Source: Candidatus Nomurabacteria bacterium (GTDB lineage: Bacteria > Patescibacteriota > Patescibacteriia > UBA1558 > GWA2-36-10). Taken from it: a stretch of 64,000 nt of DNA. Where the stretch lies: assembly GCA_020632415.1 (NCBI GenBank), contig JACKFO010000002.1:386732-450731 (forward strand). The letters are read 5' to 3'. Shown here piece by piece: positions 7,992-35,594 of this stretch. A program made the position numbers and the translations under genes. Positions within the stretch are counted from its first letter, which is position 1. Each line of letters starts with the position of its first letter. The notes below the pieces were generated by a model. It made no database searches and was not told the DNA's origin. It saw only the letters and a program-made list of their open reading frames with translations.

Positions 7992-8011
7992 ATCGCTGTC
8001 ACGCGAATTTA

Positions 8012-8040: not shown

Positions 8041-8061
8041 ATTATTTGCAAGAAATGTAAA

Positions 8062-16284: not shown

Positions 16285-17847
16285 TTAAGATTTGATTAAA
16301 GATTTTTCTTTCATTAATTTTGGCTTTGTTAAACCTAAAATATCTAGAATAGTTGGAGCAATATTTGCTAAAACCCCAGTTTTTTTTAATTGGTATTTCT
16401 GATTGCTAATGACAATAAAAGGCACTAGATTAACCGAATGTTCCGTATCTACTTCTTTTGTCTTGAGATTGATCATCTCTTCAACATTACCATGATCGGC
16501 GGTGACAATCACCGTTCCTTTTACTTTTTTTACTGCTTCAATAATTTTACCTAATTCTTGATCAACTACTTCCACAGCTTTAATTCCTGCTTTTAAATCG
16601 CCAGTATGACCAACCATATCTGGACTAGCAAAATTAACGCAAATAAAATCAAATTTATTTTGAATCACACTTTTGACCACGTAGGTGGATAACTCTTTGG
16701 AAGACATTTCCGGCACCTTAGCATAAGAATCGACATCTTTAGAGGCTATCTCTACTCTCTCCTCACCAGCAACTACATGATCATAGCCGCCGTTAAAAAA
16801 ATAAGTAACATGAGCATATTTTTCAGTTTCTGCTAAATATAATTGCCTTAAATCACGCAAAGCAATTGGCAGAGTTTCTGGAATATCAATTCCCGGAAAA
16901 GCGGTCAAAATACTGTCTAAATCTGGTCCAAAATCAGTCAAAGCCACAAAAAGTAAATCTTTAAAAACTTTTCCTCTTTTGAAGCTGCCGGGATTTTTCT
17001 TTTCAAAATCTTTTTGGACAAAAACCTTGCTTAATTGTCTGGCACGGTCTGATCTTAAATTAAAGAAAATGATTGCATCCTGATCTTTGATTGTGGCTAC
17101 TGGTTTTTTGTTTTCAAAAACCACAGTTGGTTGGATAAATTCATCACTTTCCCCTCTATTATATGCCTGACTAACGCCTTCAGCGGCAGACTCCACCTTT
17201 ATTCCCTCACCTTTAACTAGAGCATTAAAAGCCAGCTCTGTTCTGTCCCATGATTTTTTACGATCCATTGGATAAAAACGCCCCATGATCGTTGCTATTT
17301 TTATTCTCTGACGTTCAAAAATATTTTTATATTTTTCTAAAATTTTTAAAGCAGCAAATTGCGGACTATCACGACCATCGGTAAACAAATGCAAATAAAT
17401 ATTAGCCTTGGTTTTATTAACAAAAAGACTTAGCAATGACAACAAATGATCATTGTCAGCATGAGGACTAGAGCCATCAGAAAGCAAACCCATCAAATGA
17501 ATATCTGAATTATATTTGGAAACATGCTTTACAGCTTGCAAAAAAGCTGGATTTTTGAAAAAAGTACCATTGTTAATACTTTTGGAAATCGTAATTGCAT
17601 CTTGTTCAATGATTCTGCCGGCGCCGATATTCATGTGGCCAGCCTCTGAATTTCCAGGCTGCTCAGTAGGCAAACCAACGTATTTCCCAGAAGCATTAAT
17701 CAAAATATTTGGATATTTTTTATAGAGAGAATTCATCACCGGCGTTTTTGCCAAAGCAATAGCATTTCCCTCTGTTTCCTTCCAAACGCCCCAGCCATCC
17801 AAAATCACCAAAACTAATGGCAGGTTTTTATTTTTAGACATATGCAT
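16285..17847 (-). CDS. gpmI: iPGM-family paralog, copy 2 (tandem)
   Basis: VLVILDGWGV...GNSEAGH...TADHGN; 520 aa; diverged from copy 1 but retains the catalytic motifs. Confidence 0.8.
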   Translation of the reverse strand: MHMSKNKNLPLVLVILDGWGVWKETEGNAIALAKTPVMNSLYKKYPNILINASGKYVGLPTEQPGNSEAGHMNIGAGRIIEQDAITISKSINNGTFFKNPAFLQAVKHVSKYNSDIHLMGLLSDGSSPHADNDHLLSLLSLFVNKTKANIYLHLFTDGRDSPQFAALKILEKYKNIFERQRIKIATIMGRFYPMDRKKSWDRTELAFNALVKGEGIKVESAAEGVSQAYNRGESDEFIQPTVVFENKKPVATIKDQDAIIFFNLRSDRARQLSKVFVQKDFEKKNPGSFKRGKVFKDLLFVALTDFGPDLDSILTAFPGIDIPETLPIALRDLRQLYLAETEKYAHVTYFFNGGYDHVVAGEERVEIASKDVDSYAKVPEMSSKELSTYVVKSVIQNKFDFICVNFASPDMVGHTGDLKAGIKAVEVVDQELGKIIEAVKKVKGTVIVTADHGNVEEMINLKTKEVDTEHSVNLVPFIVISNQKYQLKKTGVLANIAPTILDILGLTKPKLMKEKSLIKS

Positions 17848-20706: not shown

Positions 20707-20740
20707 TATTTGCTAGATAAAATAAAACCACAAAATAAAC

Positions 20741-20772
20741 AAAAAACTCTCAAGATTTTGAGAGTTTTTTGT
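20741..20772 (-). terminator. Intrinsic terminator after the Ham1-like gene
   Basis: AACTCTCAA-GATT-TTGAGAGTT hairpin with flanking A/T runs. Confidence 0.7.
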
Positions 20773-21360
20773 TTATTTTCTATACTTTTCTGCAAAATTT
20801 GCAAAATCTTGTTTAAGTTTATCCCAAGAATCCTCTGTTTCTCTTTTTTCCTGAGGATTTAGCTCAAAATAATTTCTGCTACTAAATTTAGGAAATTCAC
20901 AAACAGAGCAGAGCCAAATTCCTGAACGATAAAACTTTGGGTTATAAACTTTAGCAATTTTCGCATCCATTGCTCTTTGTAAACTAGAAAATAATAATTC
21001 ACCATTATCAGCCACAGCTAAAGCTTCGTGCCACTCTAATCTTCTATCTGTTTTATTTTTCATCAACTCCAATAATTTATCAATTCTTTCTTGATCTGTC
21101 TCAGCAAATCTCTTAGTAGTTAAAGGATTCCAGTCATCCAGAGCTGGTATTACTGCTCCGCCGTCAGTAGAAATCGCCAATCCTTTTACCTGCCTTGAAT
21201 AAAAAATCGCCTTGTTTTCTGCAATTTCTAAAAAATTTTCACCAGATTCTTCAAATTCAAGATTATTTTCTAAATCAATAGGATCAAAATAATCTTTAAC
21301 TATTTCAATCAAAAAATTCCTTTTATATGGATTACCCGTGCCAATTAAAATATTTTTCAT
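20773..21360 (-). CDS. Ham1/RdgB-like non-canonical purine NTP pyrophosphatase (divergent)
   Basis: LIGTGNPYKR (compare ATGNxGK), EESGENFLEIAENKA (compare EETGxTFxENAxxKA), STDGGAVIPAL (compare ADDSGLxVDAL). One of the paired Asp residues is replaced. Confidence 0.5.
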   Translation of the reverse strand: MKNILIGTGNPYKRNFLIEIVKDYFDPIDLENNLEFEESGENFLEIAENKAIFYSRQVKGLAISTDGGAVIPALDDWNPLTTKRFAETDQERIDKLLELMKNKTDRRLEWHEALAVADNGELLFSSLQRAMDAKIAKVYNPKFYRSGIWLCSVCEFPKFSSRNYFELNPQEKRETEDSWDKLKQDFANFAEKYRK

Positions 21361-22406
21361 TTATTATTTTCTACCCCTAAGGCCAATTCTATTAGCTCAC
21401 TAATCAAGGCTTTAAAACTTACACCGCTCGCTTCCCATAATCTTGGGTACATACTAAATTTTGTAAACCCAGGAATAGTATTAATTTCGTTAACAATCCA
21501 CTTATTCTCTTTACTCAAAAAGAAATCTACTCGAGCTAAACCAACGCAATTCAAAATTTTAAACACTTTTATTGCCAAATCTTGCGCTTCTACAACTAAT
21601 TCTTGCGACAAACTAGCCGGCACAATCAAGCTAACGCCATTTTCATCAAAATATTTGGCCTGATAAGAATAAAAGTCATGCTTCTTTTGGCTTGCGACAA
21701 TCTCTCCTAAAATTGAGGCTTTAGGATTTGAATTACCAAAAATTGCACATTCAATCTCACGACCAAAAATATTTTTTTCAATAATAATTTTAGAATCAAA
21801 TGAAAAAGCCTCTTTTATCGCCTCTAAAAATTCTGACTCAACTTGCACCTTACTAATGCCAACGGAAGACCCTAAATTTGCCGGTTTGACAAAAAACGGC
21901 AAGCCTAGTTTTCTAACAATTTCATCAAAATTAATTTTTTCTTGCTCATTATTACAAAAAATTAAAAAATCACCAATTGGTAGACCAGCCTCTTTTAACA
22001 ATCTTTTCATCACGTCTTTATCCATGCCAACGGCAGATCCTAAAACTCCAGCGCCAACAAATGGAACGCCAGCTAATTTAAGCAAACCCTGCACAGAGCC
22101 ATCTTCCCCATAAGGACCGTGTAAAATTGGAAAGGCTAAATCAAATTTCTTTTCTTTTTGACCATTTTCTTTTACTACCTGTCCTGCCCCACCAAGAATC
22201 AAAATACATTCTCCCAAAATATTACCTTCTGGATTAACAACGCTTTTAACAAAGTACCAATTCCCAGATTTGTTGATATAAATTAAAACTGGTTGATATT
22301 TTTCTTGATCAAGATGCTCAAAAATTGCTTGAGCGGAATTAATAGAAACTTCATGTTCAGCTGATTTGCCACCAAAAATTAAAGCTATTCTTTTTTTTAT
22401 TTTCAT
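21357..22406 (-). CDS. ddl: D-alanine--D-alanine ligase (canonical)
   Basis: IALIFGGKSAEHEVSINS N-domain, central FPILHGPYGEDGSVQGLL, C-terminal RVDFFL...NEINTIPGFT; 349 aa. Confidence 0.9.
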   Translation of the reverse strand: MKIKKRIALIFGGKSAEHEVSINSAQAIFEHLDQEKYQPVLIYINKSGNWYFVKSVVNPEGNILGECILILGGAGQVVKENGQKEKKFDLAFPILHGPYGEDGSVQGLLKLAGVPFVGAGVLGSAVGMDKDVMKRLLKEAGLPIGDFLIFCNNEQEKINFDEIVRKLGLPFFVKPANLGSSVGISKVQVESEFLEAIKEAFSFDSKIIIEKNIFGREIECAIFGNSNPKASILGEIVASQKKHDFYSYQAKYFDENGVSLIVPASLSQELVVEAQDLAIKVFKILNCVGLARVDFFLSKENKWIVNEINTIPGFTKFSMYPRLWEASGVSFKALISELIELALGVENNK

Positions 22407-22412
22407 AAATAA

Positions 22413-22418
22413 ATTATA
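22413..22418 (-). promoter_or_regulatory. -10 element TATAAT placed 6 nt upstream of the ddl ATG (probable leaderless transcript)
   Basis: Revcomp of ATTATA at 22413-22418; only TTATTT separates it from the ATG at 22406. Confidence 0.4.
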
Positions 22419-22440
22419 TATTTATTTCTTTAAAAATACC

Positions 22441-22467
22441 AATTAAAAAGGGTAGCAAAAGCTACCC
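22441..22467 (-). terminator. Intrinsic terminator after the VanX-like gene
   Basis: GGGTAGC-AAAA-GCTACCC perfect 7-bp hairpin followed on the minus strand by a U-rich tract. Confidence 0.7.
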
Positions 22468-22475
22468 TCGCCAAA

Positions 22476-23258
22476 TTAAGGCTCGGTATATGAGTAGAAA
22501 GCATCACAATGTTTAACTAATCCATCCATTTGATTACCATAATTAAAATGCCATATTTCCGGACCATAACAACTAAAGCCAGCCTTGACCATCGCCAAAA
22601 TCAAACAAGAGCGATTCTTAATAACCATGGCATCATTATCAGAGAATGCCTTCCTTCTAGCCTTCAGATGATAAAAAGTGCCCGCATCCTCTTTCATCCA
22701 ATCAAAGGGCACTCCCAAATCAACAGCAACGCCATCTCTAAATGGCCAGACATCAATTGATCCACCTGTAGCATGTGGACTTGGGACCATTGAATCTTTA
22801 GAAGGCCAACTCACATAAGCGCGATTTACATCAAACATTGCCGACTGTACATTTTTTGGCAATGTAAAAAAATAATTCCTAACATCATCACAGTCAACTA
22901 AACCCGAAAACCCAGCTGATAAATTAAATTTATCAGCAGTAAATTCTCTCATGTAATACCAGAAAAGTTTCTCCTGTAGCTCATAAGACCGCCAACCATC
23001 ATAAACGATTAAGTCAAACCCTTGATCCAACAGAATGCTCCTGGCCTTCAAGAATCTATCCAAAACTGAACTTCTAATAAAAATTCTATGATCCGTAGTC
23101 AAATGCATGGAATGACAATAATACGAATAACGCATTTCGCTAGGGATTTCCACTAGCAGATCATTATTTTCAATGATTCTCACTTTTCTCCAATCGCCAA
23201 ATTTGTAAGAAAAAAGTGTTTGAAAACGCACCAGCTGCAATTTGAGTTGATTAAACAT
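22476..23258 (-). CDS. VanX/DdpX-family D-alanyl-D-alanine dipeptidase (peptidase M15D)
   Basis: SPHATGGSIDV matches the VanX Zn-binding motif SxHxxGxAxD, EIWHF matches ExxH, DGWRSYELQ matches the DGYRP region. The likely start is MFNQLK (ATG 23256-23258) preceded by a GGAG SD. The TTG-initiated extension to 23324 in the ORF track runs through the leader hairpin and is unlikely to be translated. Confidence 0.7.
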   Translation of the reverse strand: MFNQLKLQLVRFQTLFSYKFGDWRKVRIIENNDLLVEIPSEMRYSYYCHSMHLTTDHRIFIRSSVLDRFLKARSILLDQGFDLIVYDGWRSYELQEKLFWYYMREFTADKFNLSAGFSGLVDCDDVRNYFFTLPKNVQSAMFDVNRAYVSWPSKDSMVPSPHATGGSIDVWPFRDGVAVDLGVPFDWMKEDAGTFYHLKARRKAFSDNDAMVIKNRSCLILAMVKAGFSCYGPEIWHFNYGNQMDGLVKHCDAFYSYTEP

Positions 23259-23305
23259 TTTCGCTTCTCCTCTGTTTTGAATGTGCTTTTCTTCATGATA
23301 TTTCC

Positions 23306-23392
23306 AACAAAAAACCACGCCCAAAATGGACCTGGCCTGTTAAAAATATTTAATTATTAAATCTATTTTACACCTAAAAAATTATTTGTCAA
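23306..23392 (-). repeat. Copy A of an ~87-nt duplicated promoter-plus-hairpin leader (TTGACA-16-TAAAAT, then GC hairpin plus U-tract)
   Basis: Near-identical to 25951-26037. Minus strand has TTGACA (23387-23392) and TAAAAT (23365-23370), then hairpin CCAGGTCC/GGGCGTGG (23315-23335) followed by UUUUUUGUU, upstream of the VanX-like start. Confidence 0.6.
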
Positions 23393-24362
23393 GACAAAAA
23401 GATGAAAGCCTATCAGAAATATACTTAACGCGTTTATTCAGTTTTTTTCTATTAATTTTTATAAAATTTTTAAAAATTTCTGAATTAGCTAATAACCCAA
23501 AAATTAAATCTTCGTAATTAAAACCTAACTGGTAAAAACCAAGGGCCACAAAATCATCGGCAGAGAGGGCTGGTTCACCGTTCATTTCTATTACTGTTGC
23601 TACTTGCTTATTTAATTTTAAATCTAGTCTACTGTAAAATTGAGTATGTAAATATTTATTAGATAAATTTGTAATATTTTTAATATTTTTTACTGATTTT
23701 TTTGATAAAACTGGATCGGTTAAAACTTGACTATCTAATTCCAAATTCTTTGCATTATAATCGTAAAATAATCCATTGTATTTAATTTCTATCGGATTCA
23801 TTATGATGGTCAAACCGCAAATCTGCAAGAAAACGCAAGTGAATTCCCTTCCAACAACATATTCTTCAAATAAAGGAATTTTATTATGTTTTAAAATTTT
23901 ATCCGAAGCTATCTCTTTTTCATTATTATTAAAAACTAAATAAACATCTTCACTAGAAGACCCATAATTATCTTTAATAATTATCGGGTACTTTAAATCA
24001 CGTTGCATTACATTAGACAGGGTAGAAAAAGTTGTTAAAATATTGTTATTGTTTAAAATTTGATTTGTATAATGTTTGTCTCTAAGAATTCTCAAAACCT
24101 CTTCTCTCTGTCCTATAAAATCTATGGAGTTATCATATATATACTTAAATAGCCTTATTTTTCTATATACATTATTTGTATTTGAGTCTATTACAAAAAA
24201 TAAATTACATTTTTTAATATTTCTAAAATTAATTTTTTTGTTTAAAGAAATTATTAAATAATCTATTTTGTGTTTTTGTAATATACTACAAATTTGCTCC
24301 AATGAATCCCTATTATACTTTCTCTCAATTCCCAAGCCGCCATATATTATTCCGATTCTCAT
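23382..24362 (-). CDS. Divergent Ddl-family ATP-grasp ligase (paralog 2)
   Basis: N-terminal RIGIIYGGLGIERKY (Ddl N-domain pattern), central YPIIIKDNYGSSSEDV (compare FVKPANLGSSVG), GREFTCVFL (compare GREIECAVL), C-terminal EMNGEPAL; 326 aa; very AT-rich. Confidence 0.55.
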   Translation of the reverse strand: MRIGIIYGGLGIERKYNRDSLEQICSILQKHKIDYLIISLNKKINFRNIKKCNLFFVIDSNTNNVYRKIRLFKYIYDNSIDFIGQREEVLRILRDKHYTNQILNNNNILTTFSTLSNVMQRDLKYPIIIKDNYGSSSEDVYLVFNNNEKEIASDKILKHNKIPLFEEYVVGREFTCVFLQICGLTIIMNPIEIKYNGLFYDYNAKNLELDSQVLTDPVLSKKSVKNIKNITNLSNKYLHTQFYSRLDLKLNKQVATVIEMNGEPALSADDFVALGFYQLGFNYEDLIFGLLANSEIFKNFIKINRKKLNKRVKYISDRLSSFCLDK

Positions 24363-24374
24363 AATCGCCTTTGA

Positions 24375-25034
24375 TCAAAAAATGATTACATTACCTTTTT
24401 CGGAAAAAGAATTAGAAAAATCCTCTCCAGAAATTTTCCAATTAGAATGCTCGTAACTCCCCTCTGACGAAGGATGGTGTAATATAAAATCATCTATTCG
24501 TCCATTTGAAACATCGGTCCCAAAAATCAAAACCAAATGACCACCTCTAGGCATGACATCAGTGGAGCCATCAAGTTCTTCATATTTTTTACCCGCCTCA
24601 AACCCAACTGTAACAGATGCAATAACCATTCTTTGATTTTGAATATGTGTTGCAATTCTTTTAACATTAGCCCCAACAGACTCCCTAAATCCATCTAACC
24701 CCAAGGAATTACCTAAATCGACTAATCCTTGATGTTTCCAGCCATGCTCCTCATCATAAGCCCCTAGAGCTAAGCCACGATCTAATAACTCTTTTAATTT
24801 AAAATCTTGATCTGGATAATTTTTTAACAACACCATCTTTAAACAAGCTAGACCACAAATTCTTTCTGACCAATACTCTGCTTCATCCCAATTATTAAAA
24901 CCTTCTTTTTGATAATTTTCTTTAGTTAACCTTTGTGAGTAAAAAGGAACATCGCTAATTTCAAAATGCCCATCGATGATTTCCGATCTATTTTCAAATA
25001 AATTTTTAAATTTCATAAATATTGTGCCTTGCAT
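24375..25034 (-). CDS. Standalone C39-type (papain-like) cysteine peptidase domain protein
   Basis: ERICGLACLKMVL matches the C39 catalytic-Cys signature CGxACLxM; the downstream GGHLVLIFG supplies the His. 219 aa, no transporter domain. Overlaps the upstream ligase gene by about 11-29 nt. Confidence 0.5.
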   Translation of the reverse strand: MQGTIFMKFKNLFENRSEIIDGHFEISDVPFYSQRLTKENYQKEGFNNWDEAEYWSERICGLACLKMVLLKNYPDQDFKLKELLDRGLALGAYDEEHGWKHQGLVDLGNSLGLDGFRESVGANVKRIATHIQNQRMVIASVTVGFEAGKKYEELDGSTDVMPRGGHLVLIFGTDVSNGRIDDFILHHPSSEGSYEHSNWKISGEDFSNSFSEKGNVIIF

Positions 25035-25941
25035 TATTTAATAACCAAATTAAAACTTGATAAAAATTTAACCTCGAACCCAATGCCGAATAAATAAAAT
25101 TACTATCACTATATAAACCAGGAACGCTATTTACCTCTAAAAAATATACCTCCCCATTTTTAGACTCAATCAAATCAAACCTTGCTCCACCCTTAATCTT
25201 TAAAAAACTAGAAATAACTCTAATTTTTTCAAATATTTTTTTCTTATTCTTGCCATAATAATATTTATACTCACAAAAACCATCTTCGTATTTAGCTTTT
25301 TTGTCATAAAATTGAGAATTTTTCATAATAATTTCTACTATCGATAATGGATTATAATTTCCACAAGACTCCAACACACCCACCGTTAAAATTTTACCAG
25401 CAACAAATACTTCTGTAAAATTTTGATCATAATTATCAAATATTTTCCCATTAATATTCAAATCTATACTCCCACCACCTCTTATTTTTTTATGAACAAA
25501 CAAATTTTTCTTAACCTTACTAAATCTTAAATCAAAATTATCCAGTGGAGTATTTACATTCAATTTATTAACAATCCCTTTAAAAAATAACTTATCAAAA
25601 GAAACCACGGAAGTATATACATCAGAAAAAGTATAATCTACATCTAAATAATCTAAAATAGATGCCAAATGTCCACTCTCGCCAAAGGTGCCATGCAAAC
25701 AATTAAAAACTATAGAATTTTTGGACAATCTATTAACCCAATCTTTGTCAACAGACGGATCAATCATCTCTATCTGCCAATTATTATTTAGTAATAATTC
25801 ACGCTTCACGGCTTCCCCTGAATACAAAGAAGCCTCTCTTTCTTCTCCGAATCCACCAAAAAATATATAAATTTTTTTACTCTTTAGATTATTTTCAATT
25901 TTAGAAAAATTATCTAAAAAAAATTTAACATTATCATTCAT
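25006..25941 (-). CDS. Divergent Ddl-family ATP-grasp ligase (paralog 3)
   Basis: KIYIFFGGFGEEREASLYSGEAV (Ddl N-domain), FNCLHGTFGESGHLASILDYLDVDYTFSDVYTSVVSFDK (compare FPVLHGxxGEDGxxQGLLElxxiPYvGxxvlaSAlaMDK), ARFDLIESKNGEVYFLEVNSVPGL (compare RVDFFLxxxGxxYLNEINTxPG); 311 aa. Confidence 0.6.
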   Translation of the reverse strand: MNDNVKFFLDNFSKIENNLKSKKIYIFFGGFGEEREASLYSGEAVKRELLLNNNWQIEMIDPSVDKDWVNRLSKNSIVFNCLHGTFGESGHLASILDYLDVDYTFSDVYTSVVSFDKLFFKGIVNKLNVNTPLDNFDLRFSKVKKNLFVHKKIRGGGSIDLNINGKIFDNYDQNFTEVFVAGKILTVGVLESCGNYNPLSIVEIIMKNSQFYDKKAKYEDGFCEYKYYYGKNKKKIFEKIRVISSFLKIKGGARFDLIESKNGEVYFLEVNSVPGLYSDSNFIYSALGSRLNFYQVLIWLLNNARHNIYEI

Positions 25942-25950
25942 AAGTTTACT

Positions 25951-26037
25951 AACAAAAAACCACGCCCAAAATGGGCCTGGCCTGTTGCAAATATTTAATT
26001 TGTATTATTATTCTACACCTAAAAAATTATTTGTCAA
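25951..26037 (-). repeat. Copy B of the duplicated promoter-plus-hairpin leader (TTGACA-16-TAGAAT, then GC hairpin plus U-tract)
   Basis: Minus strand has TTGACA (26032-26037) and TAGAAT (26010-26015), then hairpin CCAGGCCC-AUUUU-GGGCGUGG (25960-25980) followed by UUUUUUGUU, 12 nt before the paralog-3 ATG. Confidence 0.6.
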
Positions 26038-26045
26038 ATGTTAAA

Positions 26046-28850
26046 TTATTTTTTCTTATTTCCTTCCTTTTCTACCTCTGCAATCTGCTCCTTAGTAGCT
26101 AATGGTACTTGAAATTTAAAAGTACTTCCTTTGTCCTTACCTTCACTCTCTACCCAAATTTGACCATTGTGCTCTTTGATAATCTTTTGAGCGATAAATA
26201 ATCCTAAGCCAGATCCGCCGGTATTAATCTGTGCTGCACCATCACCACGTACAAATTTTCTAAATAAAGCCCGGGCATCTGCCGGCTCAATGCCAACACC
26301 AGTATCTGTACTGCTAAACTCCAAGACGCCATCCTTAACCTCTGTCCTGACTTTTATACTACCCTGCGGTGTATATTTGATAGCATTATCAACTAAGTTC
26401 AAAACAACTTCTCTTAATTTATCCCCATCAGCATAAATTAAAGGCAAATCATTTTTTTCATCTACGTAGCTCAAATCAATTCCTTTGTTTTGAGCAGAAC
26501 TAGCTAACTCAGTAAGCACACTGGCAATTAAAGTACTGATTTGCATCGGTTTTTTTTCTAACTTTAAACGGCCAGCTTCAATTCGAGAAACATTTAAGAA
26601 AACATTAATCGTTCGAGCAAGTCGAGAAGCACTCTCAAATAAATTTTCAATCAACTTGCTAATTTTTTCTGGCAAAGGCCCAAAGTCTCCTTCCATCATC
26701 ATGGATAAATATCCTTTCAAAGCCGACACAGGGGTACGTAATTGGTGAGAGGCAATCGACAAAAATTCAGACTTTGCTTTATCTAGAGCTTTCAAATGCA
26801 AATTAGCCTCATTTAAATCATAATTTACTTTTTGTAAATTTTCGTATAAAGCCAAGTTTCGAGAAACTATTCCAACTTGACTGGTCAAAGAAGTCATCAT
26901 CTCAATATCCAAGGGGGTAATTTTTTCACGCTCTATAGCCAACAAAAAGTGAACCACGCCAATGATTCGATCTTCAGAAAATATCGGCACACCAACTACA
27001 GTTTTAACACCTAATTTTTCTTGAATAATATTAATCACATTTTTCTCAACTGGGGGCGAGAAAAAATCACTCATTTGATGTGAAAAATTTATTTTTGCGG
27101 TCAAAACTGTATCCACACCATAATTATAACCCTCTGTTAACTCTGCTTCATAATGAAAAATGTCTTCTGGTAATAACTCAATATTTTCCTTAGCTTGTTT
27201 ATTTTTAGTAACCGCTTTAACGCGTAATTTATGATCACCGTTGACAAAACTCAAAACTCCGCCAATGTATCCTAACTCCGCAGCAATGCTATCAGCGATC
27301 ATTTGCGTCACCTTTTTTAGATCCAAAGTACGACTAACCATGTTGATGATCACCTGCATTGTGGTCAAATAACGGTTTCTTTCTTCTAAATTTAAATTTG
27401 CTTGCTTCAAACTTTCGGTTTTTTCATCAACTTTTTTCTGCAAATCACGGTTTAATTCTTGCACTTCTTCGTATAGCTTTGATTTCTCAATCGCCGTCGC
27501 AATTTGTGGAGCTAAAACTTTGAAAAAATCAATATCATCTGTTCCAAAAATATCTCCGGATAATTTATTTGACAAAACAAACAAGGCGTTAGTTCGGCCA
27601 TTTTCCACGATCGGGATAGCCATTTCTGCGCCAATATTTTCAAACTCTTGAATGATCTTTTCTGTACTTTGTTTTATTTTTTCATCTTTTTTTTCATCCA
27701 AGCTTCTGACCAATTCCTCAGTGATCACTAAGTCTTGATTGTGATCAAAGTATTCAACTACTTTTTCAGTTAATTTTAAAGTATTATTTTTTTCTTGCGA
27801 ACTGGTCGTCAACATAAAATAACCATTCTGCGGCATGAAAACTTTAATTTTTTTGATCTTCAATTGCTTGGTTAAAGAAATAACTAAACTGTGCAAAAGA
27901 TCTTCTAGATCGATTTCACGAGCAACAATTAAGCTGGCTTCTCGCAAAACCGCAGAATAATTAATTTTGTCTTTATAAAAAATTTGATCGGTAACCTTAG
28001 CCCAGACTCTTTTGATTGGGTCTAAAAAAACAACAATTAAAATAGAGCTCAAAACTGTACTAATAATTCGACCATTACGCGTGTCGCCGCCAATTCTTGG
28101 TGCTAACCAAAAAATAGAAAAGGCAAAAAAACTAGCTACTGTACCAACCAAAACAGTATAGAGAATACTTCGAGTGATTATTAATTTAATATTCATCAAA
28201 CGATACCTCACTATTGCATATGTAATAGATATAATATACAAACCAACCAAATAATTCCCAACTGGATACACTTGAGAAAATTGTGGTAAAAAATTAAATA
28301 CTCCACCACCAAAACCAAAAAAAGCGGAATACAAAACGTATCTTATTTGCTGTTTCTTCATTCCGTACTCCTGATTCCCTATTTTTATTAATATAAAAAT
28401 TGAAAGACAAGCTAAAAATAAAAAAAATAATGGAAACAAAAAATAAATTGGACCGGGCTTTATCCAAAATTTAAAATTAAAAACGGACTCTAGCCCACTT
28501 TTAAAAAGTGTAGAGAAACTCAAAGCCGACAAAAAAAATGCAAAATAATACCCAAATCGAAGAAATTTCTTTAATTGATTTTGCTTATTAGTTAAATTAA
28601 TTACAAAATGAAAAAATAGTATTGGTATAAATATACCAGAAATATCTAATACTACTTGAGAAAAATAAGCCAGCTTGAAATTATCAAAATAAGTAACGCC
28701 GGCCAACCCAAGACTCCATAAAGCAGTAACAAAACTAACACTAGCCCATATTTGATTCAATTTAAATTTATTTTTTCTAAAAAAAACAAAACTAGCTAGT
28801 CCTAAGCTTAAAATTCCCGTTATTAAACTAGATAAAGAAAAAGCGCTCAT
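26046..28850 (-). CDS. Sensor histidine kinase with N-terminal multi-TM (HisKA_7TM-like) domain, GAF domains, HisKA and HATPase_c
   Basis: About 7 N-terminal TM helices; H-box SHQLRTPVSALKGY; N-box VLNLVDNAIKYTP; G1 DTGVGI; G2 GGSGLGLFIAQK; 934 aa. No response regulator in the window. Confidence 0.85.
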   Translation of the reverse strand: MSAFSLSSLITGILSLGLASFVFFRKNKFKLNQIWASVSFVTALWSLGLAGVTYFDNFKLAYFSQVVLDISGIFIPILFFHFVINLTNKQNQLKKFLRFGYYFAFFLSALSFSTLFKSGLESVFNFKFWIKPGPIYFLFPLFFLFLACLSIFILIKIGNQEYGMKKQQIRYVLYSAFFGFGGGVFNFLPQFSQVYPVGNYLVGLYIISITYAIVRYRLMNIKLIITRSILYTVLVGTVASFFAFSIFWLAPRIGGDTRNGRIISTVLSSILIVVFLDPIKRVWAKVTDQIFYKDKINYSAVLREASLIVAREIDLEDLLHSLVISLTKQLKIKKIKVFMPQNGYFMLTTSSQEKNNTLKLTEKVVEYFDHNQDLVITEELVRSLDEKKDEKIKQSTEKIIQEFENIGAEMAIPIVENGRTNALFVLSNKLSGDIFGTDDIDFFKVLAPQIATAIEKSKLYEEVQELNRDLQKKVDEKTESLKQANLNLEERNRYLTTMQVIINMVSRTLDLKKVTQMIADSIAAELGYIGGVLSFVNGDHKLRVKAVTKNKQAKENIELLPEDIFHYEAELTEGYNYGVDTVLTAKINFSHQMSDFFSPPVEKNVINIIQEKLGVKTVVGVPIFSEDRIIGVVHFLLAIEREKITPLDIEMMTSLTSQVGIVSRNLALYENLQKVNYDLNEANLHLKALDKAKSEFLSIASHQLRTPVSALKGYLSMMMEGDFGPLPEKISKLIENLFESASRLARTINVFLNVSRIEAGRLKLEKKPMQISTLIASVLTELASSAQNKGIDLSYVDEKNDLPLIYADGDKLREVVLNLVDNAIKYTPQGSIKVRTEVKDGVLEFSSTDTGVGIEPADARALFRKFVRGDGAAQINTGGSGLGLFIAQKIIKEHNGQIWVESEGKDKGSTFKFQVPLATKEQIAEVEKEGNKKK

Positions 28851-28854
28851 TGTT

Positions 28855-29553
28855 TTATGTAAAATTTAATATCCTCCATTTACGATTAATTGATACAGAT
28901 AACATCTTTTTTTTAGGATTCACAACTATGGGAATATCAGCCCAATTTAAAAGCTCAAAATCCGAATAATGATCAGAATAAACATGCACTAAAGGCCTAT
29001 GCTTAAATCGAAAATTATTATGCAAAAATTTACCAGCCGCCAACATTTTATCTCCACCATTCAAAACAACGCTTTTTAATTCCCCTGAATAAACATTGTT
29101 TTTAATATCTAAAACAGTCGAAATATAAAAATCAATATGTAAAAATCTACAAAATTGCTCAGCTATAGGATGTATTACATTTGATATAAGAACAATAATA
29201 TCGCCCTGTTGCTTGTACTTATTTATTAATAAAATAGCATCTTGAAATAAGTCATTTTTTATCTCAGCAAAAAAAAATTTATTCATCAAACTATACACCT
29301 CGCAATCATTCCACCCAGCAAAAATGCTGGCTAAATACTTTAAGCCAAACTCAATATTCTTTATTACTCCTATTTTATATAAAAAAAACCAAAAGAAAAC
29401 CAATGGCAAAGACATAAAGTGAATATAACCATTTTTATAAAGATATATGATTAATTTTTTTTGTGTATACCCATTAACAATAGTATTATCTATGTCAAAA
29501 AAAATAACTTTTTTCTTACCATTAATAATCATAAGTCTGTCCACATAAACCAC
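28855..29553 (-). CDS. HAD-superfamily (subfamily IB-like) phosphatase
   Basis: FFDIDNTIV DxD motif at the N-terminus; 232 aa; overlaps plsC by 32 nt. Confidence 0.55.
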   Translation of the reverse strand: MVYVDRLMIINGKKKVIFFDIDNTIVNGYTQKKLIIYLYKNGYIHFMSLPLVFFWFFLYKIGVIKNIEFGLKYLASIFAGWNDCEVYSLMNKFFFAEIKNDLFQDAILLINKYKQQGDIIVLISNVIHPIAEQFCRFLHIDFYISTVLDIKNNVYSGELKSVVLNGGDKMLAAGKFLHNNFRFKHRPLVHVYSDHYSDFELLNWADIPIVVNPKKKMLSVSINRKWRILNFT

Positions 29554-30115
29554 TGATTGTCTTCATAATCTTTATGGTTTCTTTATTAAAATCTTGACTC
29601 CTTACAAAAAAAACTTTCCCTATATTAATCTTACATTTTTTAAATTTTGGAAATCTATTTTCCGGTGGCCAAGCCAAAAAAGTTCCCTCAATGCCTATTG
29701 GTAGAACAGGAATGTTGTATTCATGTGCGAATTTTGCCACCCCACTATAAGCCTTACCAATACAACCATTCCTAGATCGAGTTCCTTCTGGAAAAATTCC
29801 TAGGACCCCCCCACTTCTCAATACATCGCCAACCTTTACATAAACATCGTTTTTATTATGAGAATTTCTATCAACTTTAATCTGCCCAGTCATTTCCATA
29901 ATTGGCTTCCATATTTTACTCGAAAAAAATTTTTCCGCGGCTAAAAATGATATTCTTCTAGGAAATAAAATAAATAAAATAATAAAATCTAAATAACTGT
30001 TATGGTTAGCGGCTAAAATAAAATTACCATCCGGAATATTGTTTTGGTTATTTATTTTTACTCGCCATAATAGCTTAATTGGTAAGTAAAATAAAAATCT
30101 TAATAAAAAATACAT
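29522..30115 (-). CDS. plsC: 1-acyl-sn-glycerol-3-phosphate acyltransferase (LPLAT/PlsC family)
   Basis: NHNSYLD (HxxxxD) and FPEGTRS motifs; 197 aa. Confidence 0.75.
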   Translation of the reverse strand: MYFLLRFLFYLPIKLLWRVKINNQNNIPDGNFILAANHNSYLDFIILFILFPRRISFLAAEKFFSSKIWKPIMEMTGQIKVDRNSHNKNDVYVKVGDVLRSGGVLGIFPEGTRSRNGCIGKAYSGVAKFAHEYNIPVLPIGIEGTFLAWPPENRFPKFKKCKINIGKVFFVRSQDFNKETIKIMKTISGLCGQTYDY

Positions 30116-31830
30116 TATGTTATAAATTTCTCTTTAATCCTCGCTCTTCTTAACTTTAAAGTCGGTGTTAATAAGCCATTTTCTTGTGAGAATTCTTGTT
30201 CTAATAACTTAAAATTATTCACCCTCTCTAAATGCGACCAATCTTTTAATTTTTCAGACAAAACATCAGAGTAAAGTTCTAAAACCTTTGTGTTATGTAA
30301 AATATCTGGAAATGAATAATTAAGATCATGCTCATTACACCAAATTTCTAATTCTTGAAAATCCGGTACAATTAACGCCGCGATATTTTTTTGCTTATCT
30401 CCATAAACAAAGCTTTGGGAAATAAGCTTACTCTCATTTAGCGTATTTTCAATTGGTTCTGGAAAAATATTTTTACCAGTAGAAAGAACAATCATATCTT
30501 TCGCTCTACCGATAATCGTTAAAAAACCATCTGCGTCTAAAAAACCAAGATCTCCAGTATGAAACCAAGCATCATTGTCGATCGCTCGCGCACTTTGTTC
30601 CTTATTATTATAGTATCCTTTCATCAAATTGTCACCTTTGACTAAAATCTCTTTATCTTCACCAATTTTTAATTGATTACAACTCAAAACTTTTCCTACA
30701 GTTCCAAATTTGTAATTCTTTAGTTGATTCACTGCGATAATTGGAGATGTTTCGGTTAAGCCATAGCCTTCGATTATTTGAATTCCAATATTAGCAAAAA
30801 ATTTAGCAATTGCGGGATTCAAAGAAGCACCACCAGAAATAGCCATTCGTAGATTACCGCCTAAAATTTTTCTTAATTTTTTAATAACCAATTTATCCAA
30901 GAAGAATAAACTAATTTTCTCTTTAAATTTTAATTTTCGCTGTTTTTTATACTTTGATAAATTAAGAGCTTGAAAAAATAAATGTTTCTTAAAATCCCCT
31001 CCAGCTCTAACTTGATCAAAAATTTTATCATAAATTTTTTCAAAAATACGCGGCACAGCATTAAGTACTGTCGGCTGAGCTAACTGAATATCTTCCACAA
31101 TTGTTTTGCTGTTACGAGCAAAATAAATACTGGCACCAGAAAATATTGGCGCGTAATACCCGGCACATCTTTCAAAAGCGTGAGAAAGCGGCATAAAAGA
31201 AAAAAACCTATCACGATTAGTAATATCAATCACGGCTTTGGCCGACATAACATTGGTGATTAAATTTTTATGGCTAAGCATCACTCCTTTTGGATCACCG
31301 GTGGTCCCAGAAGTGTAAATAATCGTATGCAAATCATTGTCATCAACAACTATTTTTTCCAAAACATCATAACTATTTTTGACAGGCATTTTCGGCCACA
31401 ACTTAATTACTTGATTTAACTCTTTGCAATCTCCAACAACTACGATATTTTTAAAAGAAAATTTTAACCAAATATCTTTAAATTTATTAAAATATTCTTC
31501 CTGAATAACTAAATAATCAACGTTAGCATGACTAAGTATTTGCTCAAGTTGCAAGCTATTATAAGTCAAATGTAACGGCACCAAGATCAAACCCAAACTA
31601 GCCAAAGCTAGGTCACTGACAATCCATTCCGGACCATTGCTCAACATTACAGCAACTTTTTCTTGTTTCTGCCAATTCCAAGCATGTAAATTGCTCACCA
31701 AGATTTTTCTTTGTTGATTAAGTTTTTGATAAGTAATTTTGTGATACTTTCCGCCAGAAAAATAAGCCAAAGCAATATTTTTAGGATACATTTTAGCTAT
31801 AGACTCAAATTTTGTAGCAATCGTGAACAT
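30115..31830 (-). CDS. Long-chain-fatty-acid--CoA ligase (AMP-dependent synthetase)
   Basis: AMP-binding motif IIYTSGTTGDPKGVMLSHKNL; 571 aa. Confidence 0.8.
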   Translation of the reverse strand: MFTIATKFESIAKMYPKNIALAYFSGGKYHKITYQKLNQQRKILVSNLHAWNWQKQEKVAVMLSNGPEWIVSDLALASLGLILVPLHLTYNSLQLEQILSHANVDYLVIQEEYFNKFKDIWLKFSFKNIVVVGDCKELNQVIKLWPKMPVKNSYDVLEKIVVDDNDLHTIIYTSGTTGDPKGVMLSHKNLITNVMSAKAVIDITNRDRFFSFMPLSHAFERCAGYYAPIFSGASIYFARNSKTIVEDIQLAQPTVLNAVPRIFEKIYDKIFDQVRAGGDFKKHLFFQALNLSKYKKQRKLKFKEKISLFFLDKLVIKKLRKILGGNLRMAISGGASLNPAIAKFFANIGIQIIEGYGLTETSPIIAVNQLKNYKFGTVGKVLSCNQLKIGEDKEILVKGDNLMKGYYNNKEQSARAIDNDAWFHTGDLGFLDADGFLTIIGRAKDMIVLSTGKNIFPEPIENTLNESKLISQSFVYGDKQKNIAALIVPDFQELEIWCNEHDLNYSFPDILHNTKVLELYSDVLSEKLKDWSHLERVNNFKLLEQEFSQENGLLTPTLKLRRARIKEKFIT

Positions 31831-31834
31831 AAAA

Positions 31835-32632
31835 TCAATGTTTCTTAATAAATTCTAATGTTTTTGAAAAAATAAAATCTCTCCTGGTATTATCTACTAC
31901 GTTATGTTCGTCTTTATTTAAAATAAACAAATGTTTGTCTTTGGTATTTGACAACTCTCTAAATAAAAATTCAGAACTATAGGGATCGGAAACTAAATCG
32001 TCACGAGAGTGAATCACTAATACTGGAACAGAGACTTGGTTAATTTCTTTCTTAGTCTTCTGGTCAATGAAATCATAAAAATTAATAATGCTGTTAATTG
32101 GAATATGATTATGTCTTCCTTGATCACGAATATTTTCCTCCTCCTCTTCACTGAGCCAATATTTTTTGTAAGTCTTTTTAAAAATCTTGGCCAAAGGCAA
32201 TAAAAGTCTAATTCTTTTTTCATTGCGCATAAAAATCGGTAAGCCTAAAGAAATAACGCCAGTCACATCATCTTGATACTTTACCGATAAACTAAAAGCT
32301 AAATTTGAACCAAAAGAATAGCCAATAAAAAATATCTTTCGATACTTACCAATATTTCTAAGTAAACAATCCTCTACTGTTTTAAACCAATCTTCAGCAT
32401 TACTAGCTGCTAACCTTGCTGTACTTGAACCATGCCCTGCTAACAAAGGCACTTCAACATCCATCTTATTGATTGCCAAAAAATCTGCCAAAATCCAGAG
32501 ATCATAAGGTGTGCCAGTGAAACCGTGAACTAAAATCACCAAAGTATCATTGTTCTTTTTGATACTAAATGGCCAAGCTTTTTTTGTTACCCCCTCCAAT
32601 TCAACAAACTTTTTTTCTTGTTGTTCAATCAT
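31835..32632 (-). CDS. Alpha/beta-hydrolase (esterase/lipase-like)
   Basis: LVHGFTGTPYD and GxSxG (GYSFGSN) motifs; 265 aa. Confidence 0.6.
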   Translation of the reverse strand: MIEQQEKKFVELEGVTKKAWPFSIKKNNDTLVILVHGFTGTPYDLWILADFLAINKMDVEVPLLAGHGSSTARLAASNAEDWFKTVEDCLLRNIGKYRKIFFIGYSFGSNLAFSLSVKYQDDVTGVISLGLPIFMRNEKRIRLLLPLAKIFKKTYKKYWLSEEEEENIRDQGRHNHIPINSIINFYDFIDQKTKKEINQVSVPVLVIHSRDDLVSDPYSSEFLFRELSNTKDKHLFILNKDEHNVVDNTRRDFIFSKTLEFIKKH

Positions 32633-34190: not shown

Positions 34191-34891
34191 TACTGTTTAC
34201 GATTAAAGGCTACTAAATAAAATACAACTAAATTCATGGGTATAGTAAAGATTGGGCCAACCCAAATATATGAATGAATATCAAAATAATCTAAAAATAA
34301 ATCAAAGTACGCACCAACAACAAGGCCTATTAATATAGTAATAAATAAAAGCTTTGTCCCTAATTTAAAGTGAGATTCGATATTGACGTACTTAGACCAC
34401 AAAATATACAATGAATAACAAACCATGGCTATAAATAATAAACTATACAAAATATAAAAAGGCTTAAAATAAGTTACATAAACTTCGTGAGCATTATTAA
34501 TTCTACCAAAATCCAATATGTGAGTTTTCGTGTAAACAACAAAAGAAATAGCAATCGAAACTCCAATGATAATATTTCTATGAATTTTCTTTATTACTCT
34601 AGTTGGAAATGGAAAATAAAAAATGAAATAAAATAAAAATACAGATATAAACCAAGCAGAAAGATAAGAAGTTTGAAAGAAAAACTTAGAAACGGTCAGG
34701 TCAAAAAACGCTAAACTAACAAACAAACTAGTGCCCCAGCCAAAACAAGAAAGAGCCAACAAAGAGAAATAAAGATTAATTTTATTTTTTACACCTCTGC
34801 TCAAGATAAAAATGGCCATGCCCAAATTAATCAAAGCAGATATTAACAATAACCAATTTTTCCAACCCAAAGGTGATGTTAAAAAATCCAT
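34190..34891 (-). CDS. HisKA_7TM-like multi-pass membrane protein (no kinase domain), paralog a
   Basis: 233 aa, about 7 TM helices. The N-terminus (LISALINLGMAIFILSRGVKNKINLYFSL) is paralogous to the N-terminus of the 26046 histidine kinase and to the two neighbouring genes. Confidence 0.5.
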   Translation of the reverse strand: MDFLTSPLGWKNWLLLISALINLGMAIFILSRGVKNKINLYFSLLALSCFGWGTSLFVSLAFFDLTVSKFFFQTSYLSAWFISVFLFYFIFYFPFPTRVIKKIHRNIIIGVSIAISFVVYTKTHILDFGRINNAHEVYVTYFKPFYILYSLLFIAMVCYSLYILWSKYVNIESHFKLGTKLLFITILIGLVVGAYFDLFLDYFDIHSYIWVGPIFTIPMNLVVFYLVAFNRKQ

Positions 34892-34895
34892 ATGT

Positions 34896-35585: not shown

Positions 35586-35594
35586 ATAATTAAA

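Follow-up and report, generated by a model that had tools for sequence, protein, structure and literature searches.

LigA-C39-LigB, a conserved and uncharacterised three-gene cassette in a small-genome (CPR) bacterium, with a probable role in editing or salvaging the D-alanine terminus of wall precursors

In the vanHAX (with or without vanY) and vanC-XY-T clusters, an M15 D-Ala-D-Ala dipeptidase is expressed with non-housekeeping Ddl-family ligase(s) and a further peptidase, VanY being a Zn M15 enzyme that could trim precursors. The M15D dipeptidases, with the PF01427 domain, include both VanX and E. coli DdpX, the latter encoded in the ddp operon with a dipeptide ABC transporter. The D-Ala end of the stem peptide is also acted on by the cytoplasmic peptidases LdcA, with Mpl, and E. 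faecium DdcY, feeding Ldtfm, which change the precursor reaching the wall; these belong to the Ser (S66) or the Zn peptidases, and neither a papain fold nor flanking extra Ddl-like ligases occur among them. In GspSA and trypanothione synthetase, an ATP-grasp amide ligase of GSP_synth fold and a papain-like (CHAP) Cys amidase act on the same small amide, and in butirosin biosynthesis BtrJ (ATP-grasp) is paired with BtrH, a C39-related acyltransferase that transfers an aminoacyl group instead of simply hydrolysing it. C39 peptidases occur in bacteriocin ABC exporters (ComA, PCAT1) and C39_2 domains in single-domain proteins (3ERV), and in phage lysins Peptidase_C39_2 is established as a lytic domain that cleaves the cell wall (PMC8223927).

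The window analysed here is a whole stretch of 64,000 nt of Candidatus Nomurabacteria bacterium GCA_020632415.1 (JACKFO010000002.1, 386,732-450,731, forward strand), and coordinates below are relative to it. The initial annotation had described five ORFs as a D-Ala-D-Ala module next to an orphan kinase. All six genes are present, on the minus strand, where it placed them, and their assignment to ddl, a VanX-type enzyme, two Ddl-family ligases and a Cys peptidase holds by profile and residue comparison:

26046-28850, minus strand: histidine kinase (HisKA_7TM, two GAF, HisKA, HATPase_c)
25006-25941, minus strand: LigA, a 311-aa Ddl-family ATP-grasp ligase
24375-25034, minus strand: C39_2-type papain-fold cysteine enzyme, probable start 25016, without signal peptide
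23382-24362, minus strand: LigB, a 326-aa highly divergent Ddl-fold ligase with a C-terminal helical extension
22476-23258, minus strand: M15 (VanX/DdpX-like) Zn dipeptidase, 260 aa from ATG 23258 (the mechanical ORF reaches 23324)
21357-22406, minus strand: canonical ddl, with its own promoter-like site (22413-22442) and a stop overlapping a Ham1-like gene

The locus resembles van clusters in combining an M15 dipeptidase, non-housekeeping Ddl-family ligases and a further peptidase, but differs from them in lacking VanH/VanT and a VanRS pair, in the deep divergence of its ligases, in the papain-fold Cys nature of the extra peptidase, and in that the core cassette is usually without any dipeptidase.

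LigA, C39 and LigB formed a tightly coupled operon in at least nine distinct lineages, from CPR and one gammaproteobacterial MAG, in unrelated contexts (the window, L004/5/12, L006/7/69, L008/9, L010/65-67, L014, L062, L068 and L071), with adjacent genes either overlapping by 4-26 nt or at most 12 nt apart. LigA-C39 was found without LigB in L064 and L145. The cassette is a conserved, translationally coupled operon, and its conservation across many unrelated contigs argues that the arrangement is not a chance cluster. M15 and ddl were close to the triad in only two of about nine lineages, the second being L008/9 (about 50% protein identity), and at most triad loci the neighbourhood lacked M15, ddl and other wall genes. 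The core functional unit is LigA-C39-LigB, and not the larger set first proposed, of ddl, VanX-type enzyme, ligases and C39 next to a kinase.

Both ligases belong to the Ddl family and not to RimK/LysX. LigA was above the Pfam thresholds for both Ddl domains, matched Ddl structures in the PDB (E 3e-18) and fell in a coherent clade (47% mean identity) that is sister to canonical Ddl in the tree. Identity to canonical Ddl was 24% for LigA and 18% for LigB. Against the NCBIfam Ddl models (cut-offs of at least 243 bits) they scored 148 and 94 bits, and against the Van ligase models (cut-offs 495-775) at most 55 and 42 bits, respectively. The trees of the two clades were congruent. On these profile, tree and residue comparisons, LigA and LigB are two new, deeply divergent Ddl clades.

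Mapped onto E. coli DdlB, LigA retained the D-Ala1-type first-substrate site (E15, H63, Y216) and the catalytic residues, with altered second-substrate determinants (S150G, L282N). LigB retained the ATP/Mg residues, lacked the HGxxGEDG loop of the N-domain that lies over site 1, and carried Y216N, G276A/V, S281D and L282F; of these, S281D, L282F and Y216N replace residues that hold the second-substrate carboxylate. Since all Ddl residues for ATP, Mg and phosphoryl transfer are kept in both ligases, both would be expected to form amide bonds through an acyl phosphate. In Ddl, E15 binds the free alpha-amino group, and its retention in both ligases suggests that a free amino acid is activated and not a stem peptide. 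S281D argues against the LigB product being a MurF substrate.

The protein encoded at 24375 matched a Cys-peptidase profile and fold, as the initial annotation had expected, and belongs to the C39_2 single-domain group. The papain fold and the Cys/His pair are intact, with Q34, C60 and H166 as predicted catalytic residues and a conserved HHPS motif; the protein carries no export signal and is cytoplasmic, unlike the bacteriocin-exporter C39 peptidases, 3ERV and the phage lysin domains. A role as a double-glycine leader protease was rejected: besides its C39_2 membership, it did not match PF03412, is not fused to a transporter and has no double-glycine substrate gene.

C39-like domains were fused to a canonical Ddl (P0120; 480 bits against NF002525, over the cut-off, with 49% identity to the window Ddl), to MurF-like ligases (P0078 and P0134, the latter with its MurF part 32% identical over full length to the window MurF) and to GNAT (P0065, of an abundant fusion type). 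The contigs that encode the fusion proteins are short and metagenomic, and only P0134 was replicated, on two independent contigs. The C39 orthologue was partnered by an ordinary Ddl in L011 (8-nt overlap) and, as C39-DdlA, in Rhizobium L054. The orders C39-M15-Ddl-like (L044) and RimK-like-C39-Ddl-like (L021/22/74-77) were also found, and in Burkholderia L034 a Ddl-like gene was close to C39. Together, the fusions to canonical Ddl and MurF-like ligases and the distant relatives beside Ddl-like and M15 genes in Proteobacteria link the C39-like family with the D-Ala-D-Ala terminus of peptidoglycan precursors. In Endozoicomonadaceae, close C39 orthologues (40-46% identity) were solitary: trpS and a GST/Grx2-like gene adjoined them, and no ligase was close by.

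Three further elements bear on regulation of the cassette in the window:

25937-26037, minus strand: promoter/leader copy 1 (TTGACA-16-TAGAAT and a leader of about 60 nt with hairpin and U-run), directly upstream of LigA
23292-23392, minus strand: promoter/leader copy 2 (TTGACA-16-TAAAAT, hairpin and U-run), which runs over the LigB stop codon and precedes the M15 gene
22448-22469, minus strand: terminator-like hairpin (9 bp with 5 GC, followed by a T-run), immediately past the M15 stop

The two copies form repeat D1, the largest direct repeat of the window (101 nt, 85% identity). Copy 1 scored 11/12 in the promoter scan, the motif occurred twice in 64 kb against 0 expected, and the copy 1 hairpin folded at -21.9 kcal/mol (z -3.75). 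The element had no family match in Rfam, and in two other species it preceded LigA (L010) and trpS (L011). Its duplication before LigA and M15 suggests that the LigA operon and the M15 gene are co-regulated, and the hairpin suggests control by attenuation and not by a response regulator.

The M15 protein matched PF01427 (41 bits, cut-off 27) and reached only 38 bits with the DdpX model and 24 bits with the VanX model, whose cut-offs are 176 and 320, respectively. Aligned to VanX (1R44), it retained all Zn and catalytic residues (D68, R71, S114, H116, D123, D142, E181, H184), of which R71, H116, D123, E181 and H184 were invariant in the M15 comparison. It differs from DdpX and VanX in being about 60 aa longer, with inserts, and from the ddp operon in having no dipeptide ABC transporter beside it. 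The gene, called at 22476-23324, is real, but translation most likely begins at ATG 23258, since the upstream TTG extension overlaps the promoter/leader element. The L008 orthologue is 51% identical and is likewise followed by ddl.

The terminator-like hairpin is the end of the co-regulated unit. With this hairpin ahead of it and its own promoter-like site, ddl (Dala_Dala_lig_N 115 bits, Dala_Dala_lig_C 239 bits; NF002528 437 bits, cut-off 262) is a separate transcription unit, a neighbour of the cassette and its probable pathway partner. The kinase is the final gene of an upstream AMP-binding/acyltransferase/HAD operon. In the orthologous locus L010 no kinase separates LigA from the AMP-binding gene, and most other cassette loci lack it too; it is treated as a neighbour and not as a demonstrated part of the system. 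As first reported, no receiver domain or response regulator was found within the window (4 probes).

The reading preferred, tentatively and at somewhat under an even chance, is a cytoplasmic module at the D-alanyl-D-alanine end of peptidoglycan precursors that edits the stem-peptide terminus, with van-like logic and different parts. When the shared leader permits transcription, M15 would hydrolyse D-Ala-D-Ala, LigA would join D-Ala or a close analogue to a different partner, and LigB would couple an amino acid or the LigA product to an acceptor that would not be a simple alpha-carboxylate and might be an amine. The Cys enzyme, in a VanY-like or transpeptidase-like role, would form a thioester with the residue(s) at the end of a dipeptide or stem peptide that finishes in D-Ala, and would trim or transfer them. 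Counted for terminus editing were conservation, the links to D-Ala-D-Ala enzymes, co-regulation, M15-ddl in L008/9, residues, folds, the C39_2 literature and peptidoglycan synthesis. Counted against it were the triad loci without wall genes, the polyamine setting described below, the solitary Endozoicomonadaceae orthologues, LigB S281D, E15 in both ligases and the short-contig origin of the fusions; fusing Ddl or MurF to an enzyme that trims also brings no obvious benefit unless tetrapeptide precursors or salvage are intended.

The main rival, although itself unlikely, is a free small-molecule pathway in which LigA and LigB make a short (D-)amino-acid peptide or peptide-polyamine conjugate, with the Cys enzyme as its amidase or transferase and M15 merely supplying D-Ala or turning over dipeptide, comparable in logic to glutathionylspermidine synthetase/amidase, phytochelatin synthase or BtrJ/BtrH. 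The alternative offered in the initial annotation, in which ligases and peptidase make and process a small D-amino-acid peptide, competes with terminus editing in this form. In Berkelbacteria the triad is flanked, with overlapping junctions, by an AdoMet-decarboxylase gene on one side and by agmatinase and a deoxyhypusine-synthase-like gene on the other, but this polyamine context is confined to one lineage. An Asp for the carboxylate-binding S281 of LigB would fit a cationic amine acceptor, and the abundant GNAT fusions and the scarcity of wall genes at triad loci also fit; against this, the C39-like domain is fused to canonical Ddl and MurF-like ligases, its orthologue is partnered by ordinary Ddl in L011 and L054, and here the cassette shares its promoter/leader with the VanX-like dipeptidase, with ddl adjoining. 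Compared with GspSA and trypanothione synthetase, the window proteins are separate, the ligases are of Ddl fold, the peptidase is of C39_2 instead of CHAP type, and thiol-peptide genes are missing. Rather improbable is wall-fragment salvage, with the Cys enzyme as an LdcA-like cytoplasmic L,D- or D,D-carboxypeptidase on imported host or own stem peptides; it and M15 would free D-Ala, from which the ligases would rebuild MurF dipeptides where the organism makes D-Ala poorly. The Ddl and MurF fusions suit an enzyme feeding these steps, the carriers (CPR, Endozoicomonadaceae, Endonucleobacter) depend on hosts, and SHMT, an alternative alanine racemase in Chlamydia, follows M15-ddl in L008; yet salvage gives no reason for two ligases with altered second-substrate sites on top of ddl, and the operon has no peptide transporter.

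A true van-type, kinase-controlled inducible glycopeptide-resistance cluster, the strict form of the leading idea in the initial annotation, is very unlikely. Co-regulation of a dipeptidase with alternative Ddl-family ligases, the kinase directly upstream, and a kinase and two response regulators ahead of M15-ddl in L008 would agree with it, but VanH/VanT and a response regulator are absent from the window, the kinase belongs to another operon and is missing at L010, both ligases are far under every NCBIfam Ddl and Van cut-off, the second-substrate pocket of LigB is not Van-like, and the leader hairpin points to attenuation. Modification of a ribosomal peptide (graspetide-like) or of a protein C-terminus by the ATP-grasp enzymes, with C39 removing a leader or tag, is barely credible given that no conserved small ORF was found in or beside the triad at any locus examined, that there is no ABC transporter, and that both ligases keep E15. 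Of the action on peptidoglycan termini that was originally suggested, the kinase-controlled van form was not borne out, while the C39-like fusions to Ddl and MurF-like ligases and the promoter/leader shared by M15 and the ligases favour the action itself.

Terminus editing would take place in an organism that makes peptidoglycan, with MurF, FtsI, MraW, MltG and UppP all encoded in the window. MurF is the enzyme that consumes D-Ala-D-X dipeptides, and the window MurF is the likely downstream partner of the cassette:

1961-3223, minus strand: MurF, in the dcw cluster 20 kb away (TIGR01143 328 bits, cut-off 289)

The probable target of the cassette, for editing or for salvage, is the D-alanine terminus of wall precursors, and under terminus editing a non-standard terminus would reach MurF and the wall.

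The genes that the initial annotation had listed at this locus were all present, and their family assignments were borne out. The window, from a Candidatus Nomurabacteria (CPR/Patescibacteria) genome, had a GC content of ~33%, the genes of the region were nearly all on the minus strand, and peptidoglycan machinery in the window comprised MurF, an FtsI-type PBP, MraW, MltG/YceG and UppP. The principal features were:

1961-3223, MurF (TIGR01143, 328 bits, above cut-off)
21357-22406, minus strand, canonical ddl
22448-22469, terminator-like hairpin 3' of M15, followed by a separate promoter-like site for ddl
22476-23258, minus strand, M15, a VanX/DdpX-like dipeptidase gene
23292-23392, leader copy 2, overlapping the LigB stop and 5' of M15
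23382-24362, minus strand, LigB, a divergent Ddl-family ligase
24375-25034, minus strand, C39-like Cys enzyme
25006-25941, minus strand, LigA, a divergent Ddl-family ligase
25937-26037, leader copy 1, directly 5' of LigA
26046-28850, minus strand, histidine kinase

Homologous loci on other contigs (L-numbers) were found by a homologue search with the C39-like protein and subsequent reading of their contigs. The order LigA-C39-LigB, with reading frames overlapping or nearly abutting, occurred in at least nine distinct lineages: the window, Parcubacteria GW2011_GWA2_36_10 (L010/65-67), Berkelbacteria (L004/5/12), L006/7/69, L008/9, a high-GC gammaproteobacterial MAG (L014), L062, L068 and L071. 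LigA and C39 were present without LigB at L064 and L145. Flanking genes differed at each locus (ProRS; CYTH, with an HD domain fused to LigA; polyamine genes in the S10 operon; an AMP-binding enzyme). The larger module proposed initially held in part: its genes were all there, but the conserved core was LigA-C39-LigB, M15 and ddl stood beside it only in the window and at L008/9, and the kinase adjoined it only in the window. Methyltransferase neighbours (L008, L010, L145) were only ~28% related or unrelated, and were rejected as a conserved part. At L006 (6395-7999) the LigA orthologue carried an N-terminal HD-domain extension of ~230 aa, with a CYTH (triphosphate tunnel) gene 5'. In Berkelbacteria (L004 3203-8056; also L005 and L012), the triad lay between an AdoMet-decarboxylase (SpeD-like) gene and an agmatinase plus a deoxyhypusine-synthase-like gene, all of it embedded in the S10 ribosomal-protein operon, with S10 on one side and L3 on the other.

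Both divergent ligases belonged to the Ddl family, as had been claimed, LigA by its Pfam Ddl domains (PF01820 41.6, cut-off 34.6; PF07478 52.1, cut-off 24) and LigB by its fold and ATP-grasp catalytic residues; the fold ruled out a RimK/LysX type for LigB. Word-indexed homologue searches with LigA and LigB gave few matches, and orthologues were drawn from the loci found through the C39 gene. Each ligase formed a coherent clade, with a mean identity of 47% for LigA and 36% for LigB, and an identity to canonical Ddl enzymes of 24% and 18%, respectively; their trees had similar branching orders, as expected for a co-inherited cassette.

Active sites were mapped on E. coli DdlB (numbering used here), the sequence of which was verified against 2DLN. 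Both ligases retained E15 and K97, K144, K215, R255, D257, E270 and N272. In DdlB, the latter seven handle ATP, Mg and phosphoryl transfer, E15 binds the first D-Ala through its amino group, and S281 and the 282 backbone hold the second by its carboxylate. Among LigA orthologues, E15, H63, GE(S/D)G, K97, K144, K215, Y216, R255, D257, E270 and N272 were kept in all 11; LigA retained S281 too, and part of its central domain was missing. Every LigA orthologue had S150G and L282N, and the best NCBIfam score of LigA was 148.5 bits (cut-off 243); by score and by these clade-wide replacements, LigA was not equivalent to a D-Ala-D-Ala, D-Ala-D-Lac or D-Ala-D-Ser ligase. LigB scored lower (PF01820 E 0.07; best NCBIfam 94 bits, cut-off 243), and every orthologue had a C-terminal helical extension and was devoid of the HGxxGEDG loop of the Ddl N-domain. 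Y216N, G276A/V, S281D and L282F were present in nine of nine LigB orthologues, so that the D-Ala2 site of Ddl was not preserved. Mutagenesis by Healy et al. in 2000 reportedly identified positions 282 and 216 as the pair that decides between D-Ala and D-Ser in DdlB and VanC2. Because LigB has Asp at 281, where S281 holds the second D-Ala carboxylate in DdlB, we infer that the acceptor of LigB may lack the carboxylate of a second substrate, and could be an amine.

A PDB sequence search with the C39-like protein returned no match, and structure prediction was therefore used. The predicted structure was papain-like in fold, and the protein had the Cys nucleophile, the His base and the oxyanion Gln of the C39 clan. 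A bacteriocin-processing C39 (PF03412, the ABC-exporter domain that cuts a double-glycine leader) was rejected: the protein was stand-alone (213-219 aa), did not match PF03412, and no transporter or precursor gene was found in any cassette locus examined. Peptidase_C39_2 has been described as a lytic domain of phage lysins for Gram-positive hosts (PMC8223927), and the family is otherwise uncharacterised in a recent classification (PMC10318531).

Searched with a profile, 1.84 billion cluster representatives contained 1260 relatives at E <= 1e-3, of which 75 reached E <= 1e-30; fusions were sought among the best 150 of the 1260. In P0120 (P-numbers are homologous proteins from this search), a C-terminal C39-like domain was attached to a complete canonical Ddl (480 bits with NF002525, above cut-off) that shared 49% identity with the window Ddl. 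P0078 and P0134 were MurF-like ligases (best model murF), each with a C39-like domain at the C-terminus; P0134 was 32% identical to the window MurF over its full length and was present on two independent contigs. P0065 fused a C39-like domain with GNAT. Residues C60 and H166 and the HxPS motif were retained in the fused C39-like domains, and most fusion proteins were single metagenomic observations. The P0065 cluster, very abundant in public data, had 1776 members, with one gene at L146 (7001-8119) between secA and prfB.

Neighbouring genes repeated the association. At L011, Ddl and C39 overlapped by 8 nt; in Rhizobium sp. RAF56 (L054), a DdlA-type gene came after C39; a Pseudomonadales MAG (L044) had the order C39-M15-like-Ddl-like-...-C39; Burkholderia (L034) had a C39_2 gene with a Ddl-like gene close by; and the order at L021/22/74-77 was RimK-like-C39-Ddl-like. 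Distant C39_2 loci, actinobacterial and others (~25-29% identity), had no Ddl-family or M15 neighbour except L123, with a Ddl-like gene ~3 kb from the C39_2 gene on the opposite strand; the Ddl/M15 link therefore holds for the subfamily and not for all PF13529. Fusions of peptidoglycan-pathway enzymes normally join neighbouring steps, and NCBIfam has MurC-Ddl, MurE-MurF and MurF-Alr fusion models. Judged from these arrangements, the C39-like domain most likely acts directly before, between or after Ddl and MurF, on D-Ala, D-Ala-D-X or the D-Ala end of the UDP-MurNAc-peptide.

Orthologues of the C39-like protein in Endozoicomonadaceae/Endonucleobacter (L002, L003, L015-L020, around position 8000; 40-46% identity) stood alone. 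They were divergent from trpS where the upstream gene was readable, several had an overlapping or nearby GST/glutaredoxin-2-like gene 3', and at L020 the trpS-C39 pair was tandemly duplicated. As a single-lineage observation with no ligase nearby, trpS and the GST/Grx2-like gene were rejected as functional partners.

The canonical ddl scored well above cut-off (NF002528 437 bits, cut-off 262; TIGR01205 363, cut-off 246), and its product, with E15, S150, K215, Y216, R255, D257, E270, N272 and S281, was a Ddl. The M15 product matched PF01427 (41 bits, cut-off 27). The VanX-type dipeptidase of the initial annotation was sustained at the level of the active site: aligned with VanX 1R44 (sequence verified; VanX numbering), the Zn ligands H116, D123 and H184, the catalytic E181 and R71 were invariant, and D68, S114 and D142 were kept too. 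It did not extend to orthology, the scores being far under the equivalog cut-offs for DdpX (NF007557 37.6, cut-off 176) and VanX (NF033115 23.6, cut-off 320), which identifies M15 as a distant M15D member by profile.

The largest direct repeat in the 64-kb window was this 101-nt promoter/leader segment, with two copies of 85% identity. In each copy, a near-consensus promoter (TTGACA-16-TA(G/A)AAT) was accompanied by a short leader and a stable hairpin plus U-run (-22 kcal/mol, z ~ -3.5), and the core motifs were absent elsewhere in the window (0 expected by chance). Given leader copy 2 ahead of it, M15 most likely starts at the ATG at 23258. The element was also present at L010 6985-7074, before LigA, and at L011 1640-1745, before the trpS...Ddl-C39 string, with the core CCATTTTGGGCGTGGTTTTT across window, L010 and L011. 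It was kept while proteins of the L010 and L011 species were only ~60% identical to those of the window, which argues that the element is conserved and that it marks a C39-containing operon in three of three species. An Rfam search at permissive E-values gave no credible family, and the leader may be a new attenuator or riboswitch-like element. LigA-C39-LigB and M15 are probably co-regulated, perhaps by attenuation, with ddl outside that unit. The L011 locus (1640-8633), in a close relative, was devoid of LigA and LigB. There the leader preceded trpS, which was followed in turn by an uncharacterised 208-aa gene, a gene of aspartoacylase/AstE type, a 560-aa gene that matched no family significantly, a fragment of trpS and Ddl-C39.

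The kinase had the domain order 7TM-GAF-GAF-HisKA-HATPase, and no receiver domain or response regulator was detected in the 64-kb window. At L010, the closest relative, an AMP-binding gene was directly followed by the LigA leader. By this arrangement, the lack of a receiver domain in the window and the transcription signals, a role for the kinase as cassette regulator was rejected as unsupported. It was one of four paralogous HisKA_7TM proteins within 11 kb (34190-36959 and 26046-28850): two 7TM-only (~230 aa), one 7TM+GAF without kinase core, and one full kinase. The operon 5' of it (28855-32632) encoded two hydrolases, one alpha/beta and one HAD, together with an AMP-binding acyl-activating enzyme and an acyltransferase of PlsC type; the distant RimK-like-C39-Ddl-like cassette in L022 likewise had a PlsC-type acyltransferase gene 5' of it. 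Elsewhere in the window, adjacent paralogous genes for cofactor-independent phosphoglycerate mutase (14707-16281 and 16285-17847) lay beside eno and pgk, and a 703-aa ORF without Pfam match (8062-10173, plus strand) was opposite to almost all its neighbours. A near-perfect palindromic hairpin 3' of a Ham1-like gene (20732-20779; 20 counted pairs, 2 of them G-U; T-runs on both sides) suggests a bidirectional terminator.

Cytoplasmic editing of the stem-peptide terminus is the reading we tentatively favour, at somewhat less than an even chance. With expression permitted by the shared leader, M15 would remove D-Ala-D-Ala, LigA and LigB would make alternative amide products from D-Ala-like substrates, and the Cys enzyme would trim or transfer the terminal residue(s) through a thioester. 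The genes present, their conservation, the co-regulation signal, the residue patterns and the fusions were observed; every substrate, and which way the Cys-enzyme reaction runs, we infer. Counted against terminus editing were the close C39 orthologues standing alone in Endozoicomonadaceae beside trpS and a GST/Grx2-like gene, the absence of wall genes at most cassette loci, and the single metagenomic observation of most fusion proteins. Such editing would follow van-like logic (dipeptidase, alternative ligase, trimming peptidase) with non-van parts. A strict kinase-controlled van cluster (alternative ligase, VanX, VanH or VanT, VanRS), the comparison drawn initially, is very improbable: a dipeptidase was indeed paired with alternative ligases, but the operon had no dehydrogenase or racemase that could serve as VanH or VanT, no receiver domain was found in 64 kb, and the ligases were not Van-type by NCBIfam models.

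A pathway to a soluble peptide or peptide-polyamine conjugate (GspSA-, phytochelatin- or BtrJ/BtrH-like) is unlikely but the most substantial rival to terminus editing; glutathionylspermidine synthetase/amidase likewise combines a ligase and a Cys amidase on one peptide-polyamine amide, and both the polyamine genes around the Berkelbacteria triad (L004/5) and S281D in LigB hint at it. Salvage of D-Ala from imported stem peptides fits the C39 fusions and the host-dependent carriers, and is given a lower probability still. RiPP formation or protein tagging, for which a precursor gene was lacking, is scarcely credible. The cassette is best placed within known D-Ala-D-Ala metabolism and precursor editing, with a minority chance, a small one, of new wall-precursor chemistry. 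In a bolder form of terminus editing, which we regard as improbable, the C39_2-like protein would be the first of a new class of cytoplasmic Cys-dependent precursor editors (carboxypeptidase/transpeptidase at the D-Ala-D-Ala end), installing with the two ligases a non-canonical terminus, possibly amine- or polyamine-capped, under a leader attenuator; if true, this would be a wall chemistry undescribed in any organism and spread among CPR bacteria.

The literature searched described neither the cassette nor the two Ddl-derived clades, nor a C39_2-Ddl/MurF link; the ATP-grasp amidoligase survey of Iyer et al. 2009, which may mention such neighbourhoods, was outside its scope. Published counts of 'van-like' genes in CPR genomes (PMC8651080) came without synteny, and surveys that score such genes as resistance would need to allow for non-van Ddl/M15 systems. 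The results offer an initial functional lead on C39_2, a large and uncharacterised family, and add two new Ddl subfamilies, each with its own residue signature, and a conserved leader that is a candidate regulatory element. CPR/Patescibacteria account for much of bacterial diversity, and to our knowledge their envelopes are almost unstudied. Because the peptidase domain is fused to Ddl or MurF elsewhere, the conserved cassette would indicate a new route for changing the precursor at the site where it is recognised by glycopeptides, beta-lactam targets and L,D-transpeptidases alike.
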